DNA of 64,000 bases from an uncultured Myxococcales bacterium (GTDB lineage: Bacteria > UBA10199 > 2-02-FULL-44-16 > JAAZCA01). A program made the translations under genes and the position numbers. The stretch is from assembly GCA_964480565.1 (NCBI GenBank), contig CAYZSU010000002.1:3367-67366 (forward strand), given 5' to 3'. The notes beneath the pieces are model-generated. The model ran no database searches. It was not told where the DNA came from and saw only the letters and a program-made list of their open reading frames with translations. Below, piece after piece: positions 26,202 to 57,684 of the stretch (its first letter is position 1; each line of letters starts with the position of its first letter).

Positions 26202-26585
26202 TCAGTTTATCTTTCCTTTTTTCTCAACATTTGTTTTGACGTATACAATTTCATCACCCAAAGGCAGACGCATATAATAATGTTTCTTTGCAATTTTCTC
26301 TAATCGCTCTGGTGATTTTAATTCCGCTACTTTCGCCTGTAATTTATTTTTTTGCTCAGATAATTCATGCACTTCTTTTCTAAGCTGACTAACACCATAA
26401 CCCAACTGAATCATCTGAATTCGCATCCAAACAAAGAGCATGGCAATACTCACAGCAACAATAATTAAACTCACTACTTGGCGAATATGTTTGCGACGTT
26501 TAGCCAGATTTTTTTGTGCAACCGGCTGTTTTCGCACAACACTAAATGATGAATACCCAGTACTTGAACGACCAACATCCATCAT
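26202..26585 (-). CDS. ftsL: Cell division protein FtsL
   Basis: Small bitopic protein with a coiled-coil region (QLRKEVHELSEQKNKLQAKVAEL). Position between rsmH and ftsI. Confidence 0.7.
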   Translation of the reverse strand: MMDVGRSSTGYSSFSVVRKQPVAQKNLAKRRKHIRQVVSLIIVAVSIAMLFVWMRIQMIQLGYGVSQLRKEVHELSEQKNKLQAKVAELKSPERLEKIAKKHYYMRLPLGDEIVYVKTNVEKKGKIN

Positions 26586-31155: not shown

Positions 31156-31665
31156 ATGACACGTACTTGGCTTATCGCACTCACAGCACTTATCACAACT
31201 TGCATGGTATCACCTCTTGTATATGCATTAAATGACTGCTACCATTCAGGGGAACAATTACTCATACATGATAATAGTACAGGACATGTTCGTTATGAAC
31301 GTACTGAGACAATTTATCAGCAACCTGATAATTTTTTACTCGCCACAATTGAAGATGAACGTATTATTTTCACACCCATTGTTGAAGTTTTCAAAAATGA
31401 GCTTACCAATCGTTTACTTCGCATTGAATTATCCACTGGCCATAGTTTGATGATCACAGAATCCCATCCAGTATGGGTGAATGACACATTTATCACAGCT
31501 GGCACATTAAGCATCGATGATACATTAACCAGTATTACTGGCGAATCCGTAAGCATCATGGATGTCAAGGTGATGAATTATGATGGATTTGTATATAATT
31601 TTGCTATCAATGGTTCAGGCATACAAATCAGCGATGGCATCCGCCTAGGCGGATCAGACATATAA
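31156..31665 (+). CDS. Small secreted protein consisting essentially of a Hint (Hedgehog/intein / bacterial intein-like) domain
   Basis: Strong AGGAG Shine-Dalgarno sequence. Signal peptide MTRTWLIALTALITTCMVSPLVYA. Hint-like blocks: LTGHSLMITESHPVWV, AGTLSIDDTLTSITGESVSI and the terminal VYNF. Confidence 0.45.
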   Translation: MTRTWLIALTALITTCMVSPLVYALNDCYHSGEQLLIHDNSTGHVRYERTETIYQQPDNFLLATIEDERIIFTPIVEVFKNELTNRLLRIELSTGHSLMITESHPVWVNDTFITAGTLSIDDTLTSITGESVSIMDVKVMNYDGFVYNFAINGSGIQISDGIRLGGSDI

Positions 31666-32130: not shown

Positions 32131-32217
32131 GGGGAGGTGGCCGAGTGGCTGAAGGCGGCACCCTGCTAAGGTGTTATACGGGAGACCGTATCGAGGGTTC
32201 AAATCCCTCCCTCTCCG
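32131..32217 (+). tRNA. tRNA-Ser (anticodon GCU), long variable arm. CCA not encoded.
   Basis: Folded by hand. Acceptor stem GGGGAGG/CCTCTCC (one G-U pair). D-arm GCCGAGTGGCTGAAGGC. Anticodon loop CTGCTAA. T-arm GAGGGTTCAAATCCCTC. Discriminator G. Confidence 0.9.
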
Positions 32218-34786: not shown

Positions 34787-35476
34787 TTAATCTTTTTTCA
34801 TAATGAATAAATAATTAAATCCGCGCAAATAAAAATTGCCCTTCACCGCCTCATCCAAAAAATTCTTTCGTTTGAGTTTTTTATTATGGCGCACCACAGA
34901 AACAATATCGAGTGCCCGGAAGTATTTTTGTAATATTCCAAACAACTCAAAACCAATAGGTACAAACCCTTTTTTATTTTGATAGGTGTCGGACACATAC
35001 AATGCCATACAGCGCTTAGGCCGCATGATACGGTGAATTTCAGCAATCACCCGATGCATGGATTTAAAATAGTCCACCTCAAATGCAGATAGTTTACCAA
35101 TACATCGCTTATCATCGGAATAATCAATATGCGTGGAATATGGCGGATCGATAAATACAAAATCCGCTTTTTCATCCTCTAAAGGTAGCTTTCTTGCATC
35201 GGATCGAAAAATATCCTTTCGCGTGGGATTTAAGTCATAGCCCAATGCGCGCCGATTTAAGTCCCTAGCCACATCCAATGTCGTCCCGCTGCCACACATG
35301 GGATCCACGATTAAATCTTTTTTTCTTGTATAACGATTTAACAAGTTCCAAATAATATAGGATGGTGTTGCTCCTTCATAGTCTTTACTACCCTGTATTT
35401 CCCCACCATAATGTTGAGAAGGATAATCCCACAAAGTGGTACCATGCATGGGCACATTGTTTCTAGTATTATTCAT
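34787..35476 (-). CDS. Small SAM-dependent nucleic-acid methyltransferase (N6-adenine / N2-guanine amino-methyltransferase family; UPF0020-like)
   Basis: Motif I LIVDPMCGSGTTLDVA and motif IV FVFIDPPYS. No adjacent restriction endonuclease. Confidence 0.55.
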   Translation of the reverse strand: MNNTRNNVPMHGTTLWDYPSQHYGGEIQGSKDYEGATPSYIIWNLLNRYTRKKDLIVDPMCGSGTTLDVARDLNRRALGYDLNPTRKDIFRSDARKLPLEDEKADFVFIDPPYSTHIDYSDDKRCIGKLSAFEVDYFKSMHRVIAEIHRIMRPKRCMALYVSDTYQNKKGFVPIGFELFGILQKYFRALDIVSVVRHNKKLKRKNFLDEAVKGNFYLRGFNYLFIMKKD

Positions 35477-40812: not shown

Positions 40813-42558
40813 ATGACAATTGCAATCCATGTCACCCATGAAGCCATTGGAAAAATCGGCGGCATTGGGGCTGTACTTGAAGGCTTATTGCCTACTCCCA
40901 TATATCAAAAAACATTTCCAACAACCCTGCTCTATACGCCTTTATTCACAAAAGATGCCTTGCTTGAAAATCGCTTGGGCGATAATGCAGAGGTTCTATA
41001 TTCCAGCATTGACAAGTATGATAGCGATCACTGGTCTGATATATTTGCCCCCATTCAATCCATGTATGGCATTCATATTGTCTATGGTAAAAAAACATAT
41101 CAGCCTGCAGGGTCGCAATTGCAAACAGTCACTGATATTTTAGCGGTGGACATCGCTGATATGACGCCAAAATCCATCGATGCATTTAAGTATGCACTTT
41201 GGCAGCATTTTCAATTTCGCTCAGATAAATACAGCGCAGACACTGACTTTGAGCAGTTCTTACGCTTAGGAATTCCATTAACAGCCATTTTAGACAGCCT
41301 TTATCCAGAGCAGGCCGCACACATATTCTCACACGAATACATGGGTATGCCATCGGCATTGGCCATTAAGATCGCTCAAAAAAATAACTGCCGCATGCAG
41401 GATAAAACAATCTTCTATGCACATGAAATATGTACAGCCAGATCCATTGTTGAAAACCATCCTGGGCATGATCTATCATTTTATAATCTTTTGAATGCAG
41501 ATACTAGCGATGGCATTTCTATGGAAGATGAGTTTGAATCCTTTGCGCATTACTCGCGTAGCGAATTGGTCAAGCTTGCCTGCGAACTCGATCATATCTA
41601 TGCAGTAAGTGATATTACCAAACGCGAGTATCAATATCTTTGTCCTCATGTGGATATAGATAAAATTCATACTGTCTACAATGGCATTTCATACAATCAT
41701 ATTCCTTATAAGGAAAAACAAAAAAGCCAGCGATTGATCAAAACATATTGCGAATCATTGTTTAACTTTAAACCGGATTTTATTTTCACCCATGTCACGC
41801 GCCTGGTGCCGAGTAAAGCAATTTGGCGAGATATCCGTTTACTAGAGAGCCTCGACAAACACTTTGCAGCCAATCGTAAAAAGGGAGTTTTCATTTTACT
41901 CTCTACATTGATGGGTAATGGCCGCTGCAATGACGATGTACATCAAATGGAATTTGAATACGGTTGGCCCGTACTTCATAAAGAAGGATGGCCCGATCTT
42001 GTTTATTCTGAAGTTGACATCTACCGCTCACTGGAAATTTTCAATGCGCGATCGCAAGCCATCAAAGGAGTTTTCTTAAATCAATTTGGTTTTGATCGTT
42101 TACGCTGTGGCATGCGTATTCCAGAAAAAGCCAATTTTCTCCATTTACGCCAAGCCTCGGACCTTGAATTTGGAATGTCCATTTATGAACCTTTTGGCAT
42201 TGCCCAACTGGAAACACTTCCTTATGGAGGACGACCCGTAGTAAGCAGTGTATGTGGTTGTGCCTCCCTATTAAAACAGCATATGGAAAACAATGATCAC
42301 TTTATTATTGATTTCACCAAAGTGCCGGCCAAATTACAAAATGCCTTTCAGCATAAAAATGACTATAAACATATTTCAACTCAGCTACGTGATTTAGTAG
42401 AAACAGAAATTTGTAATGATGTTAGCGGGCAGTTATTTGAGGCATTGCCACACAATCAAATCAGCCGTCAAGCCATCTATGAACATATGCAGGATTATGC
42501 CAAACGATTGGATTGGAACGAAATCGCAGTCAATGTATGCAGCCCTTTTTCCAAATAA
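40813..42558 (+). CDS. Glycogen synthase, eukaryotic-type (GT3 family). Start ATG at 40813 with a GGGGGA Shine-Dalgarno sequence.
   Basis: N-terminal IHVTHEAIGKIGGIGAV matches the GT3 FEVAWEVANKVGGIYTV block. FGMSIYEPFGIAQLETLPYGGRPVVSSVCG matches GYS YYEPWGYTPAEC...G.PSVTTNLSGFG. Confidence 0.65.
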   Translation: MTIAIHVTHEAIGKIGGIGAVLEGLLPTPIYQKTFPTTLLYTPLFTKDALLENRLGDNAEVLYSSIDKYDSDHWSDIFAPIQSMYGIHIVYGKKTYQPAGSQLQTVTDILAVDIADMTPKSIDAFKYALWQHFQFRSDKYSADTDFEQFLRLGIPLTAILDSLYPEQAAHIFSHEYMGMPSALAIKIAQKNNCRMQDKTIFYAHEICTARSIVENHPGHDLSFYNLLNADTSDGISMEDEFESFAHYSRSELVKLACELDHIYAVSDITKREYQYLCPHVDIDKIHTVYNGISYNHIPYKEKQKSQRLIKTYCESLFNFKPDFIFTHVTRLVPSKAIWRDIRLLESLDKHFAANRKKGVFILLSTLMGNGRCNDDVHQMEFEYGWPVLHKEGWPDLVYSEVDIYRSLEIFNARSQAIKGVFLNQFGFDRLRCGMRIPEKANFLHLRQASDLEFGMSIYEPFGIAQLETLPYGGRPVVSSVCGCASLLKQHMENNDHFIIDFTKVPAKLQNAFQHKNDYKHISTQLRDLVETEICNDVSGQLFEALPHNQISRQAIYEHMQDYAKRLDWNEIAVNVCSPFSK

Positions 42559-42618
42559 ATTGCATTATATCTAATGAGATTACCTACAAAACAGCCATGT
42601 TGTAGGCAGTTCCATTAT

Positions 42619-42668
42619 GTGCAATCATGTGCAATCATGTGCAAAAGTGTGCAAAAGTGTGCAAAAAT
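42619..42668 (+). repeat. Five tandem 10-bp repeats GTGCAA(T/A)(C/A)(A/G)T, about 80 bp upstream of the TPR lipoprotein start
   Basis: GTGCAATCAT GTGCAATCAT GTGCAAAAGT GTGCAAAAGT GTGCAAAAAT. One helical turn per unit. Confidence 0.8.
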
Positions 42669-42748
42669 CAGTACAATTATCATTTTTTCTTGCCAAAAAA
42701 TCTCCATAGTCTATGACTCAAGAAACGACGAATAACGATGGAGAAACT

Positions 42749-43828
42749 ATGAACACTCATTATGCATGGATTGGCATTATTATCGCAATATTATGCAGCG
42801 TAACAGCATGCAATAGTGATAAAATTTTAGGAGATCAATCACGTATTGCAGGTACTAATAAAGGTTATCAAGAAAATGACAAATATCAATATGCAAAATC
42901 CTTATATGAGCAAGAGCAATATGCAGAAGCACTGGATTCATTTATAGAACTCGGGCACATATATCAAAAAAATGCGACTATTTTTAACTATATCGGCTTA
43001 TGCTACTATCATCTGGATAATTACGATCACGCATTAAAAAATTATAATCGCGCTAGCAGCTTATCACCCTTTTATGCAACACCGCTTCACAATATGGGGG
43101 TAATTTACCTTGAAAAAAATAATTATGAAACAGCCCTTGAGTATTTTTCAAAAGCAATTGCATGTGAAAAAGAAGATGATCCTTATACAGGAACTTATAT
43201 ATTGCGTGCGCGCGTTTTTTATTACTTGGAACAGTCTGTTAATGCACTCTCGGATTTAAGCACAGCAATTGAATTAGACCCAACATCCATACACGCCTAT
43301 GCATCACGTGCTGGCATATATCGACGCATGGGAGATTTTAACTCCGCACTCAATGATGCAAATACAATTATTCAAATGGATGATACGGAGATTGATGGTT
43401 ATATTTCCAGGGCATGGATCTATGCCAGCATGGATGATATTGATCAAGCAATCGATGAATTTGATATTGTTTACTCACATGCATCACCCAGTAAAATCCC
43501 AGTTCACAAATTGGCGCTTGTTGAAATGTTGATCATATTCAATCACTATGACAAAGCAATAGAGCAATTATTGTCACTTGAGCAAGAAAGCAACTTAGCT
43601 GAGAAAATAAACATTTTAATCAACTATCATCACGCCATACTTGCAAAAGTACAAAATAAAGACACAACACCATATGATCAATATTTAAATGATATGGCGA
43701 CAACCCCCATTACTCTTCACTGGAACTTTCATCTTATTGAAGAATGGTTAGACACTGTAAACTTACCAGAACACACCATTGACTATATTCGCGACAAAAC
43801 AGAGTGGATGCAGCATAAATTTTACTAG
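42749..43828 (+). CDS. TPR-repeat lipoprotein
   Basis: Lipobox ILCSVTAC. Several TPR units. GGAG Shine-Dalgarno sequence upstream of the ATG at 42749. Confidence 0.55.
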   Translation: MNTHYAWIGIIIAILCSVTACNSDKILGDQSRIAGTNKGYQENDKYQYAKSLYEQEQYAEALDSFIELGHIYQKNATIFNYIGLCYYHLDNYDHALKNYNRASSLSPFYATPLHNMGVIYLEKNNYETALEYFSKAIACEKEDDPYTGTYILRARVFYYLEQSVNALSDLSTAIELDPTSIHAYASRAGIYRRMGDFNSALNDANTIIQMDDTEIDGYISRAWIYASMDDIDQAIDEFDIVYSHASPSKIPVHKLALVEMLIIFNHYDKAIEQLLSLEQESNLAEKINILINYHHAILAKVQNKDTTPYDQYLNDMATTPITLHWNFHLIEEWLDTVNLPEHTIDYIRDKTEWMQHKFY

Positions 43829-44040
43829 GGCGTGTCCTCAATTCGTTTAAGAATCCACTAAATGCGTATAAATAGGCAAAAAAAGAAATTAATTCCCTAA
43901 TGCCATACATTTTTTGTCATCATCGGACTTGATCCGATGATCCATGAAACAACTGTAAACACTGGATTATCGGGTCAAGCCCGATAATGACAGATATTTA
44001 GATGTTCAATTGAGGATACGCCTTAAACCATCACTTAAAA

Positions 44041-44085
44041 TAAAAAAACCGCCATATATAATCATTCATATATGACGGGTTTTAT
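44041..44085. terminator. Bidirectional rho-independent terminator between convergent genes
   Basis: AAAAAAA-CCGCCATATAT...ATATATGaCGG-GTTTTATTT: imperfect palindrome flanked by an A-tract and a T-tract. Confidence 0.5.
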
Positions 44086-44102
44086 TTATAAAAGTAAAAT
44101 TA

Positions 44103-53507: not shown

Positions 53508-54686
53508 ATGCATTCCCAAACCTCATCATTTTCTGTACAACCCTTAAAAACGCGACACCGTAAAAAGAAAACACTATTTCCTTTTTTACCAGAGCAAGTT
53601 TGGGTGGATCGAAATATAGTATCACATCCACAAACCATCCGTATTCTCAATCAATTACAAGATGCAGAAATAGACATCGTTGATAATATTCGTTCATTAA
53701 AAACACCCGCAAGCCTCAATATAGCCAAAAAACAACTTGTTCTCACTGAACACAAAGGGCATGCCTTTAAAGAATGCCAGGGTATCACTCCCAACCACCT
53801 GTGCTGTAATTACCGCACATTGGACTTAGTATCTGGCTGTCCCATGGATTGCAGTTATTGCATTTTGCAATCCTATCTAGCAAACAACCCCATCACCACT
53901 GTATATGTGAATTTGGAACAAATTCTCGACCAAGTGGCAAGCTTTCTAAAGTCAAACAAGGGTACCCATTTTCGTATTGGCACAGGTGAATTAGGAGATA
54001 GCCTCGCATTAGATCCAATCATCGATTATGCGAGTATTTTAATTCCCTTTTTTGCACAGCAAGACAATGCTGTATTAGAATTAAAGACAAAAACAAATTT
54101 TGTCGATCATATCCTAAAATTACGCCATCGCAATCGAACCATTATTGCATGGTCGATAAATACACCTGATTATATTCAAACAGAAGAAAGTCATACTGCC
54201 AGCTTAGAAAAACGGATTGAAGCGGCACAAAAAGTCATTCAAGCAGGATATCGTGTGGCATTTCACTTTGACCCCATTTTTATACTTAAGGACATTGATA
54301 CTGAGATGGCGGCATATCAAGATGTCATTGCCACTATATTCGAGCATATTGATCCACAGTATATTGCCTGGATCAGCTTAGGGCTACTTCGCTATCCAAA
54401 AAATTTACCTCAAATCGCAGAAAAACGATTTCCAAATACCCGTATTTATACGGGCGAACTCGTACCATCGGATTCAAAAGTCAGGTATTTGCGATTTATT
54501 CGTGAACACGCATATAAATTACTTTGGAATACCTTTCAAAAATATATTACCACCAACAAACTATACCTTTGCATGGAAACTCACACAGTTTGGCAAAAAG
54601 TAGATACATCCATTAACAGCAATGAATGCATTGATAAACGACTGTGCACACAGGAAAATGTTTTGTTTGATTTTAAAAATTTTTAG
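53508..54686 (+). CDS. Spore-photoproduct-lyase-family radical SAM protein (SplB-like)
   Basis: CxxxCxxC cluster VSGCPMDCSYCILQSY. Blocks YVNLEQILDQ and KRIEAAQKVIQAGYRVAFHFDPIF align closely with Bacillus SplB. The alternative start at 53439 is less likely. Confidence 0.65.
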   Translation: MHSQTSSFSVQPLKTRHRKKKTLFPFLPEQVWVDRNIVSHPQTIRILNQLQDAEIDIVDNIRSLKTPASLNIAKKQLVLTEHKGHAFKECQGITPNHLCCNYRTLDLVSGCPMDCSYCILQSYLANNPITTVYVNLEQILDQVASFLKSNKGTHFRIGTGELGDSLALDPIIDYASILIPFFAQQDNAVLELKTKTNFVDHILKLRHRNRTIIAWSINTPDYIQTEESHTASLEKRIEAAQKVIQAGYRVAFHFDPIFILKDIDTEMAAYQDVIATIFEHIDPQYIAWISLGLLRYPKNLPQIAEKRFPNTRIYTGELVPSDSKVRYLRFIREHAYKLLWNTFQKYITTNKLYLCMETHTVWQKVDTSINSNECIDKRLCTQENVLFDFKNF

Positions 54687-56836: not shown

Positions 56837-57042
56837 ATTCGAATCTCCCTTACGATTACTACGTATAAAGTGTTGCGCAGCACACTTCAAGATTTTTTTA
56901 CAAAATATTACTTAAACCGCTCACAAATACCCATATGTATTGTTGTAAGAGCATTCCTATATTTGATTTTTATATATTATTCCTATAAAACCGCTTCATT
57001 CAAATGAATAATGATGGAACGCATTGAAAAATAGGAATTTCC

Positions 57043-57684
57043 ATGACGCATTTCGCTTTCATACTAATCTATCTATGTGCATTTTGTTTTACCCTAACCA
57101 CTCATGCAAATGCATTACCTGGTTTTCATACTGGCCCATACCTCACATTATCCATGGGGATAAGCCAATCCAATCATGATTATAATCATGTGGAACAACG
57201 TAATTTTGGCAATAACTTTGAGCCTAATTTTGGATTTATCTTTGGTTGGAATATTAATGATCAGATTGCAACTGAACTGTCAGGTACATATACAACCAAT
57301 CTTACTAGTAATGCCAGGCAACACCTAGTCAGCTCTGCTATTTCAGGAAAATATAGCTTTGTTATTCCAGCGCTCACATCCTTTCGTACAATAGCGATAC
57401 TACCGTTTTTTAAAGTAAGCTTAACGAGTAAACTCAATGTACTTCCCTTTAATTTTACCAACTCATCCTCCAATGTATTTCAATATGCAATTGGTCCCAG
57501 CATAGGTACAGGCATATCTTTTTTATGGAAAAAATATGTGTATTTTGGCGTACTCATCCAAGAGGACATACTGTATTATTCAAGCTGCCAAAGAACAGTC
57601 AACACAGTCCCTGATACATTACTTTACAATGGTGGATGGAAAGGAAGCATTAATAGCTCTTTTTTTATCGGTGTTCACTATTAG
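57043..57684 (+). CDS. Small outer-membrane beta-barrel protein (OmpW/OmpA-TM-like), divergent from the previous one
   Basis: Signal peptide MTHFAFILIYLCAFCFTLTTHA. C-terminal aromatic ...FIGVHY. Confidence 0.5.
   Translation: MTHFAFILIYLCAFCFTLTTHANALPGFHTGPYLTLSMGISQSNHDYNHVEQRNFGNNFEPNFGFIFGWNINDQIATELSGTYTTNLTSNARQHLVSSAISGKYSFVIPALTSFRTIAILPFFKVSLTSKLNVLPFNFTNSSSNVFQYAIGPSIGTGISFLWKKYVYFGVLIQEDILYYSSCQRTVNTVPDTLLYNGGWKGSINSSFFIGVHY

Follow-up and report, generated by a model that had tools for sequence, protein, structure and literature searches.

Does a head-to-tail array of five 10-bp units, set in the spacer upstream of a TPR lipoprotein gene, serve as an operator for a transcription factor, or is it a young tandem repeat that lies near a promoter and has at most a passive effect on the gene? 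This question is raised by a locus in the window, by which is meant the whole stretch of DNA that was analysed (64,000 nucleotides). The five units, read directly from the sequence at 42619-42668, are GTGCAATCAT GTGCAATCAT GTGCAAAAGT GTGCAAAAGT GTGCAAAAAT; the array is thus borne out as described in the original prediction, and both of the pairs that had been called identical (units 1-2 and units 3-4) match in sequence. A more natural register is given by the invariant 7-mer TGTGCAA, which starts at 42618, 42628, 42638, 42648 and 42658, so that the feature occupies 42618-42668 of the forward strand as five cores followed by the 3-nt spacers TCA, TCA, AAG, AAG and AAA. Tandem Repeats Finder splits it into two perfect sub-arrays with one core in common: sub-array A (ATGTGCAATC x2.8, forward strand, 42617-42644, score 56) and sub-array B (TGTGCAAAAG x2.9, forward strand, 42638-42666, score 58), each with 100% matches, and these two are the top-scoring tandem repeats of the window. 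In 100 dinucleotide-preserving shuffles, three consecutive units were never found, not even at a tolerance of 3 mismatches. The last unit is a truncated copy that merges into the flank rather than a mutated copy, and all differences from unit to unit are confined to one contiguous 3-nt block, the spacer. As to the exact helical periodicity that had been ascribed to the array, the 10-bp period stands, while the exact match to the helix does not, since B-DNA has a repeat of about 10.5 bp and a 10-bp period therefore drifts by about 0.2 turn across five units.

The array is intergenic, lying between a stop codon that ends at 42558 and an ATG at 42749, and its last base (42668) falls 80 bp before that ATG, in agreement with the distance first proposed. 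A 10-bp period is not compatible with coding, as can be read from the sequence itself, and a small ORF that crosses the array (42574-42735) was rejected because it has no Shine-Dalgarno sequence, the period is read in three frames, and the ORF is left uncalled by gene callers. A known RNA family was likewise rejected: the sole Rfam match in the whole window is a tRNA at 32131, with nothing for the array at the gathering score, and a permissive local search around the array returned only matches at the level of chance.

The upstream neighbour (40813-42558, forward strand, stop codon TAA at 42556-42558) encodes a divergent GT-B glycosyltransferase belonging to a glycogen cluster, recognised through its homologues and through profile matches to the Glycos_transf_1, Glyco_transf_4 and GlgA models, all of them sub-threshold. 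It had been called a GT3 glycogen synthase; assignment to the GT-B glycosyltransferases is upheld, while GT3 identity is plausible and not established, the precomputed GT3 domain PF05693 being present on only a few of the homologues. The cluster continues on the opposite strand with an alpha-glucan phosphorylase (DUF3417), a GH57 protein, a GT5 synthase and a debranching enzyme. The downstream gene (42749-43828, forward strand) is an orphan TPR lipoprotein gene, and its earlier naming is confirmed by Pfam TPR_1 and TPR_2 matches (E=1.7e-26 for TPR_1) together with a lipoprotein-type signal peptide, MNTHYAWIGIIIAILCSVTAC, carrying the lipobox VTAC. Its start is most likely the ATG at 42749, which follows a GGAG Shine-Dalgarno sequence (42740-42743) and opens this signal peptide; gene callers chose another in-frame ATG, at 42713. 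The host is represented by a window of about 39% G+C whose replicative helicase has 70-81% identity to proteins from MAGs of uncultured bacteria, which carry the labels Deltaproteobacteria bacterium RIFCSPLOWO2_02_FULL_44_10, CG11_big_fil or Pseudomonadota bacterium. Elsewhere in the window are two ORFs that may be gene fragments: a short one at 31156-31665, whose match to Pretoxin-HINT scores 27.0 bits where the Pfam cutoff is 27.7, and one of 229 aa at 34787-35476, whose similarity to the N6_N4 DNA methylase model is confined to the C-terminal part of that model. Small imperfect tandem repeats are also present at 56953-56987 (13 bp x2.7) and 57201-57233 (12 bp x2.8), in and beside a divergent intergenic region of which both flanking ORFs have no Pfam match.

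Comparison with relatives places the array within a larger segment of 1.5 kb (42559-44102), which comprises the array, the TPR gene and a palindromic element, and which is flanked by the glycosyltransferase gene on one side and, on the other, by the gene for alpha-glucan phosphorylase, convergent to it. The segment is missing from L091, L092 and L093, the three nearest relatives that were examined; in each of them, a convergent phosphorylase or GH57 gene comes directly after the glycosyltransferase gene, across a gap of 2 to 168 bp. This synteny leads us to read the segment as an insertion peculiar to the lineage, into a glycogen-metabolism cluster that is otherwise conserved. Among 5.8 billion proteins, the glycosyltransferase has zero relatives between 57% and 100% identity, and the TPR lipoprotein has no true homologue, its matches being generic TPR matches of at most 35% identity and partial coverage. 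With array and gene missing in the three relatives and the TPR protein lacking a true homologue, the region must be regarded as evolutionarily recent. It also follows, from a lineage-specific segment with an orphan gene, that there is no orthologous promoter by which conservation of the sites could be judged; a search among homologues of the lipoprotein and the three relatives returned none.

Between the lipoprotein stop and a shared terminator, the segment carries a near-perfect long palindrome of 200 nt (43826-44025), with the 18-nt inverted repeats TAGGGCGTGTCCTCAATT and AATTGAGGATACGCCTTA at its two ends, which looks like a MITE or other palindromic insertion. Its only Rfam matches are sub-threshold ones to generic hairpins (miRNA precursors), and neither the palindrome nor the segment as a whole has a second copy within the window. 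A hairpin with A-rich, stem and T-rich parts (AAAAAAACCGCCATATAT ... ATATATGACGGGTTTTATTTAT, 44035-44092) follows between the convergent lipoprotein and phosphorylase genes and looks like a bidirectional intrinsic terminator, and the 276-nt RNA that takes in both the palindrome and this adjoining hairpin (43820-44095) has a folding energy of -92 kcal/mol (z = -11).

On the side of the array that faces the lipoprotein gene, two overlapping -10-like hexamers, TACAAT at 42672-42677 and TATCAT at 42678-42683, were picked up by a hexamer scan (8/12) on the forward strand and constitute one candidate promoter (42672-42683). The -35 position that goes with the hexamer at 42672 falls in unit 4, where GTGCAA has 3/6 matches to TTGACA; a standard promoter scan, under whose threshold these hexamers lie, returned no forward-strand promoter. 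An alternative promoter-like pair, TTGCCA at 42690 and TATGAC at 42712 with 16 bp between them (42690-42717, forward strand, 9/12 matches), has a putative -10 that is missing the final T. With respect to these two weak candidates, the array would lie at -35 to -66 or at about -60 to -110. Promoters of the sigma-70 type are a reasonable model for the organism, since the tRNA gene in the window has the pair TGGACA/TATATT upstream. On the other side, directly 3' of the glycosyltransferase stop, there is an imperfect stem-loop on the forward strand (42559-42625), detected both by RNA folding and as an inverted repeat, with an energy of -17.7 kcal/mol (z = -2.76, none of 200 shuffles being equally stable). 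The outer stem is formed by ATTGCAT (42559-42565) together with GTGCAAT, which belongs to unit 1. This stem-loop may be a 3'-end or terminator hairpin; it has no downstream U-tract, and a terminator scan found none.

The explanation that is tentatively preferred here sees in the array a decamer minisatellite of recent origin, which lies in DNA upstream of a promoter and is at most passive in its effect, and not a dedicated operator shaped by evolution. A decamer containing TGTGCAA would have lain in the spacer ahead of the orphan gene, the spacer being one that is not conserved and the gene a recent acquisition, and replication slippage would have multiplied this decamer on two or more separate occasions, leaving the ATGTGCAATC and TGTGCAAAAG sub-arrays. 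Any effect on the lipoprotein gene would then be passive and architectural: the array would provide the DNA in which the -35 of the likeliest promoter (the one with TACAAT at 42672) falls, together with the DNA upstream of that position, and its three in-phase A-tracts might bend the DNA or act in the manner of an UP element. Given that the unit is near one helical turn, gain or loss of a unit would keep the upstream DNA roughly in phase, and might be tolerated for this reason. In this scheme we infer the origin by slippage, the position of the promoter and the lack of a specific binding protein alike.

What carries this explanation is, in the first place, the perfection of the copies: two sub-arrays with 100% matches in non-coding DNA point to recent tandem duplication or slippage, and not to sites that evolved as a set. 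It could be argued that the core is under selection, and if the substitutions were independent, differences confined to the spacer would have a probability of about 0.01-0.03 by our own estimate. However, a single multi-base event could account equally well for differences in the spacer only, and the argument is weakened because the last unit is truncated, not mutated, and because sub-arrays A and B differ by one contiguous 3-nt block.

The distribution of such arrays in other genomes points the same way. A scan of 185,579 species-representative genomes for TGTGCAA arrays of three or more units gave 86 loci in very diverse taxa, and neither this locus nor its organism is among them; together with the absence from the three relatives, this is the pattern of a recent repeat that is not conserved outside its lineage. 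Adjacent spacers are identical in 60 of the 86 loci. The same pattern was found at no fewer than 120 loci in metagenomes, where some of the contigs look eukaryotic, with long GT-microsatellite flanks, and where no contig of the array's organism was among the matches listed. TGTGCAA decamer arrays thus arise independently and sporadically in unrelated taxa, and such scattered, independent occurrence is behaviour typical of slippage-born minisatellites and not of one conserved regulatory element. Two of the loci were considered as relatives of the present one and rejected: one comes from a MAG whose SI. label hints at a similar habitat and looks phage-like, with 27% GC (L034), and in the other, from UBP3 (L016), the likeness is limited to the 29-bp repeat itself.

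Some of these genomes show features of their own. A 3-unit TGTGCAA(A/T)AT array is common to Acinetobacter nematophilus, A. pragensis, Acinetobacter sp. ANC 4204 and A. chengduensis (L050, L051, L063 and L072, respectively). In A. chengduensis, whose locus alone was inspected closely, the array separates two small co-directional genes, coming after the stop of a 73-aa ORF and before the Shine-Dalgarno sequence of the next, and the surroundings, which include a divergent 218-aa ORF, seem to be an early region of a prophage. The Acinetobacter array could be a phage regulatory site; it was set aside as uninformative on the array upstream of the lipoprotein gene. Many separate arrays occur within each of two single genomes, the Bacteroidota MAG JBDROF01 (L005, L007, L033, L035, L066, L073-L075, L080 and L081) and the Bacteroidales MAG BS750m-G5 (L018, L029, L040 and L049). 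Their decamers are of the TGTGCAATGA type, with TGGCAATGA and TGCGCAATGA variants among them, and number up to 8 per array; these loci suggest a dispersed, genome-wide family of decamer repeats in some Bacteroidota.

Several points weigh against the minisatellite. Only 7 of the 86 genome loci have five perfect cores or more, which makes an array of this size a rarity, and a binding site born by slippage could still be functional. The other points are those on which the main rival explanation draws, namely that the array is an operator for a winged-helix response regulator of the OmpR/PhoB family or a similar direct-repeat binder, which is possible but doubtful. By analogy with such systems, monomers or dimers would occupy the five TGTGCAA decamers head-to-tail, roughly on one face of the DNA, and the promoter-proximal unit would stand in for the missing -35, so that RNA polymerase would be recruited to TACAAT and transcription activated; alternatively, the bound protein might occlude the promoter and repress it. 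The original prediction had called the geometry typical of operator arrays, and it does fit the direct repeats of winged-helix regulators in its 10-bp period, 7-bp core and variable spacer: five cores, perfectly conserved, follow one another at 10 bp on one strand, within the range of two or more direct repeats at 10-11 bp spacing that such an operator would have. Half-sites of OmpR/PhoB-family regulators are of the form TGTnCA followed by an A-rich stretch, to which the heptamer TGTGCAA is similar, and an invariant 7-mer of this kind speaks for an operator and against a minisatellite. The same is true of the promoter region, in which good -10-like hexamers without a -35 begin 4 bp past the array end, the layout of an activator-dependent promoter. 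Units 3-5, TGTGCAAAA(G/A), furthermore show a loose resemblance to the ArcA element ATGTTAAAAA (PMC4173790).

Against an operator stands the failure of the motif to recur, which had been named as a check on the idea. The 64 kb contain 17 copies of TGTGCAA where 20.6 would be expected, and 15 matches to two units (up to 3 mismatches being allowed) where 14.6 would be, with no excess of either; every exact pair spaced by 10 bp lies inside the array, and the twelve copies outside it are all in long ORFs except one at 26515. There is hence no second site at another promoter within the window, though in favour of an operator it must be said that this search covered about 64 kb of the genome only. 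Nor was a regulator gene recognised nearby, in that no transcription-factor domain was found in the 35 larger ORFs that were scanned, of the 48 ORFs of 150 aa or more in the window, and a literature search for TGTGCAA as a binding motif gave nothing relevant. The lack of an orthologous promoter in which the sites might recur counts against an operator too. Characterised arrays are moreover degenerate, whereas the perfect copies and pairwise-identical spacers seen here are those of very recent duplication, and the spacing is 10 bp as against 11 bp for ArcA, PhoB and PhoP. The operator mechanism of the original prediction is possible, but it gained support from none of the tests that were run.

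If an operator were nevertheless present, it would define a binding motif, TGTGCAA N3 in direct orientation with a 10-bp period, for a regulator in a lineage without genetics, and would provide a small example of cis-regulatory sites made by repeat amplification. The two views can be joined, in that a single site for a winged-helix activator might have been amplified in situ by slippage into five sites, wiring a new orphan gene into an existing two-component regulon, but this combination is unlikely. It would mean that a gene in the conserved glycogen cluster of an uncultured deltaproteobacteria-like lineage had gained a regulated promoter. Neither such a motif nor such an example would alter the current understanding of bacterial regulation, and the locus as found, one short tandem repeat beside one species-specific gene, matters little.

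An array that is intrinsically curved could also act as an UP-element-like enhancer, raising basal transcription without a specific factor, and this is unlikely. Sub-array B holds three A4-5 tracts at 10-bp phasing and is the only run of at least three phased A4+ tracts on the forward strand of the window (the reverse strand has one more, near 54684, and the mean over shuffles, both strands counted, is 0.12), it stands directly upstream of the candidate promoters, and phased A-tracts stimulate promoters. However, units 1-2, with the spacer TCA, have no A-tract, phasing is automatic in any tandem decamer that contains an A-run, and the position of the promoter is one that we infer.

It was also proposed at the outset that the array might be a promoter element of variable repeat number, and in its fullest form this would make it a contingency (phase-variable) repeat in which the number of units switches or tunes expression of the lipoprotein. 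A tandem repeat upstream of a surface-lipoprotein gene is what such a locus would look like, and copy number does differ between contigs for some unrelated TGTGCAA arrays (e.g., L102, L194 and L207). The locus was found in 8 contigs from 7 samples (JGI 3300009008, 3300007510 and 3300007511; ENA ERZ23498639 and ERZ23498660; Logan SRR8062320 and SRR8062321), and in all 8 the array has five units. The 221-bp intergenic stretch is present exactly in every one of them, and their alignments to the window, 2.8 to 21 kb long, show 100% identity with 0 differences. The comparison of repeat number that had been called for therefore yields an invariant five, but among 8 clonal assemblies that sample no strain diversity, and because these assemblies show no variation of any kind, the invariance says nothing about the stability of the array. 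More telling is the unit: contingency loci are long runs of 1-7-nt units, whereas here the unit is 10 nt and the identical runs stay under three copies (at most 2.9), and a unit of a whole turn would leave the -35/-10 spacing unchanged. On these grounds, and with no length variant among the 8 clonal assemblies, a variable promoter element is disfavoured, and phase variation appears very improbable. Very improbable, too, is the reading that the array is a relic of a mobile or integrative element (such as binding repeats of the recombinase arm type or the transposase sub-terminal type) which stayed behind when the 1.5-kb segment was inserted. The array does lie at the left edge of that insertion, the right part of which carries the 200-bp palindromic MITE-like element, but no integrase, transposase or target-site duplication in the window is tied to the segment, its other end has no matching repeat, and no second copy exists in the window.

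Other readings failed on the sequence. A sigma-54 promoter was rejected on the forward strand, where the GG element is missing, and on the reverse strand, where the TTGCAC/TTGCA pairs are one base too short and point away from the genes. CRP sites and DnaA boxes were rejected on sequence and unit length, and iterons of a replication origin because the unit is 10 bp as against 17-22 bp and the flanking genes encode a glycosyltransferase and a TPR lipoprotein, not a rep gene.

Among known systems, the minisatellites or VNTRs are those to which the array is compared first, as it is head-to-tail, consists of perfect copies, is non-coding and is missing in relatives, with equivalents scattered in unrelated genomes; unlike VNTRs, it shows no copy-number variation among the 8 clonal assemblies. 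Phase-variable promoter repeats, such as the tetranucleotide and dinucleotide tracts that precede adhesin and fimbrial genes, share with the array a position upstream of a surface-protein gene; the array departs from them in its much longer unit, in the small number of its identical copies and in showing no polymorphism of length among the 8 clonal assemblies.

Operators composed of direct repeats have been described for several response regulators, including ArcA, whose sites consist of 2-5 direct repeats of ATGTTAAAAA spaced by 11 bp, about one helical turn (PMC4173790), TorR, which uses 4-5 tor boxes (PMC9239176), and Mycobacterium tuberculosis PhoP, with a 7-bp motif and a 4-bp spacer (PMC4832192). 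The array is like the ArcA elements, the TorR boxes, the OmpR sites F1-F3 and the PhoB/PhoP boxes in having multiple direct repeats about one turn apart, and like the OmpR/PhoB-family operators in having a short core followed by an A/T-rich segment at or upstream of a putative -35. It differs from this family in that its copies are perfect as opposed to degenerate, its spacing is 10 and not 11 bp, and the 64 kb and the relatives examined yielded no regulon, regulator or conservation for it. Another comparison is offered by marine Beggiatoaceae and cyanobacteria, in which TAACTGA heptamers form abundant intergenic direct repeats, with about 169 sets per genome (PMC4679880). These are likewise short tandem repeats with no known binding factor, upstream of a gene in an uncultured bacterium of marine type, but they are 7-nt repeats in about 169 sets, as opposed to a single 10-nt array with no second in 64 kb. 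Taken against these systems, the array is best classed as an intergenic tandem repeat, possibly a direct-repeat operator, that is real but ordinary.
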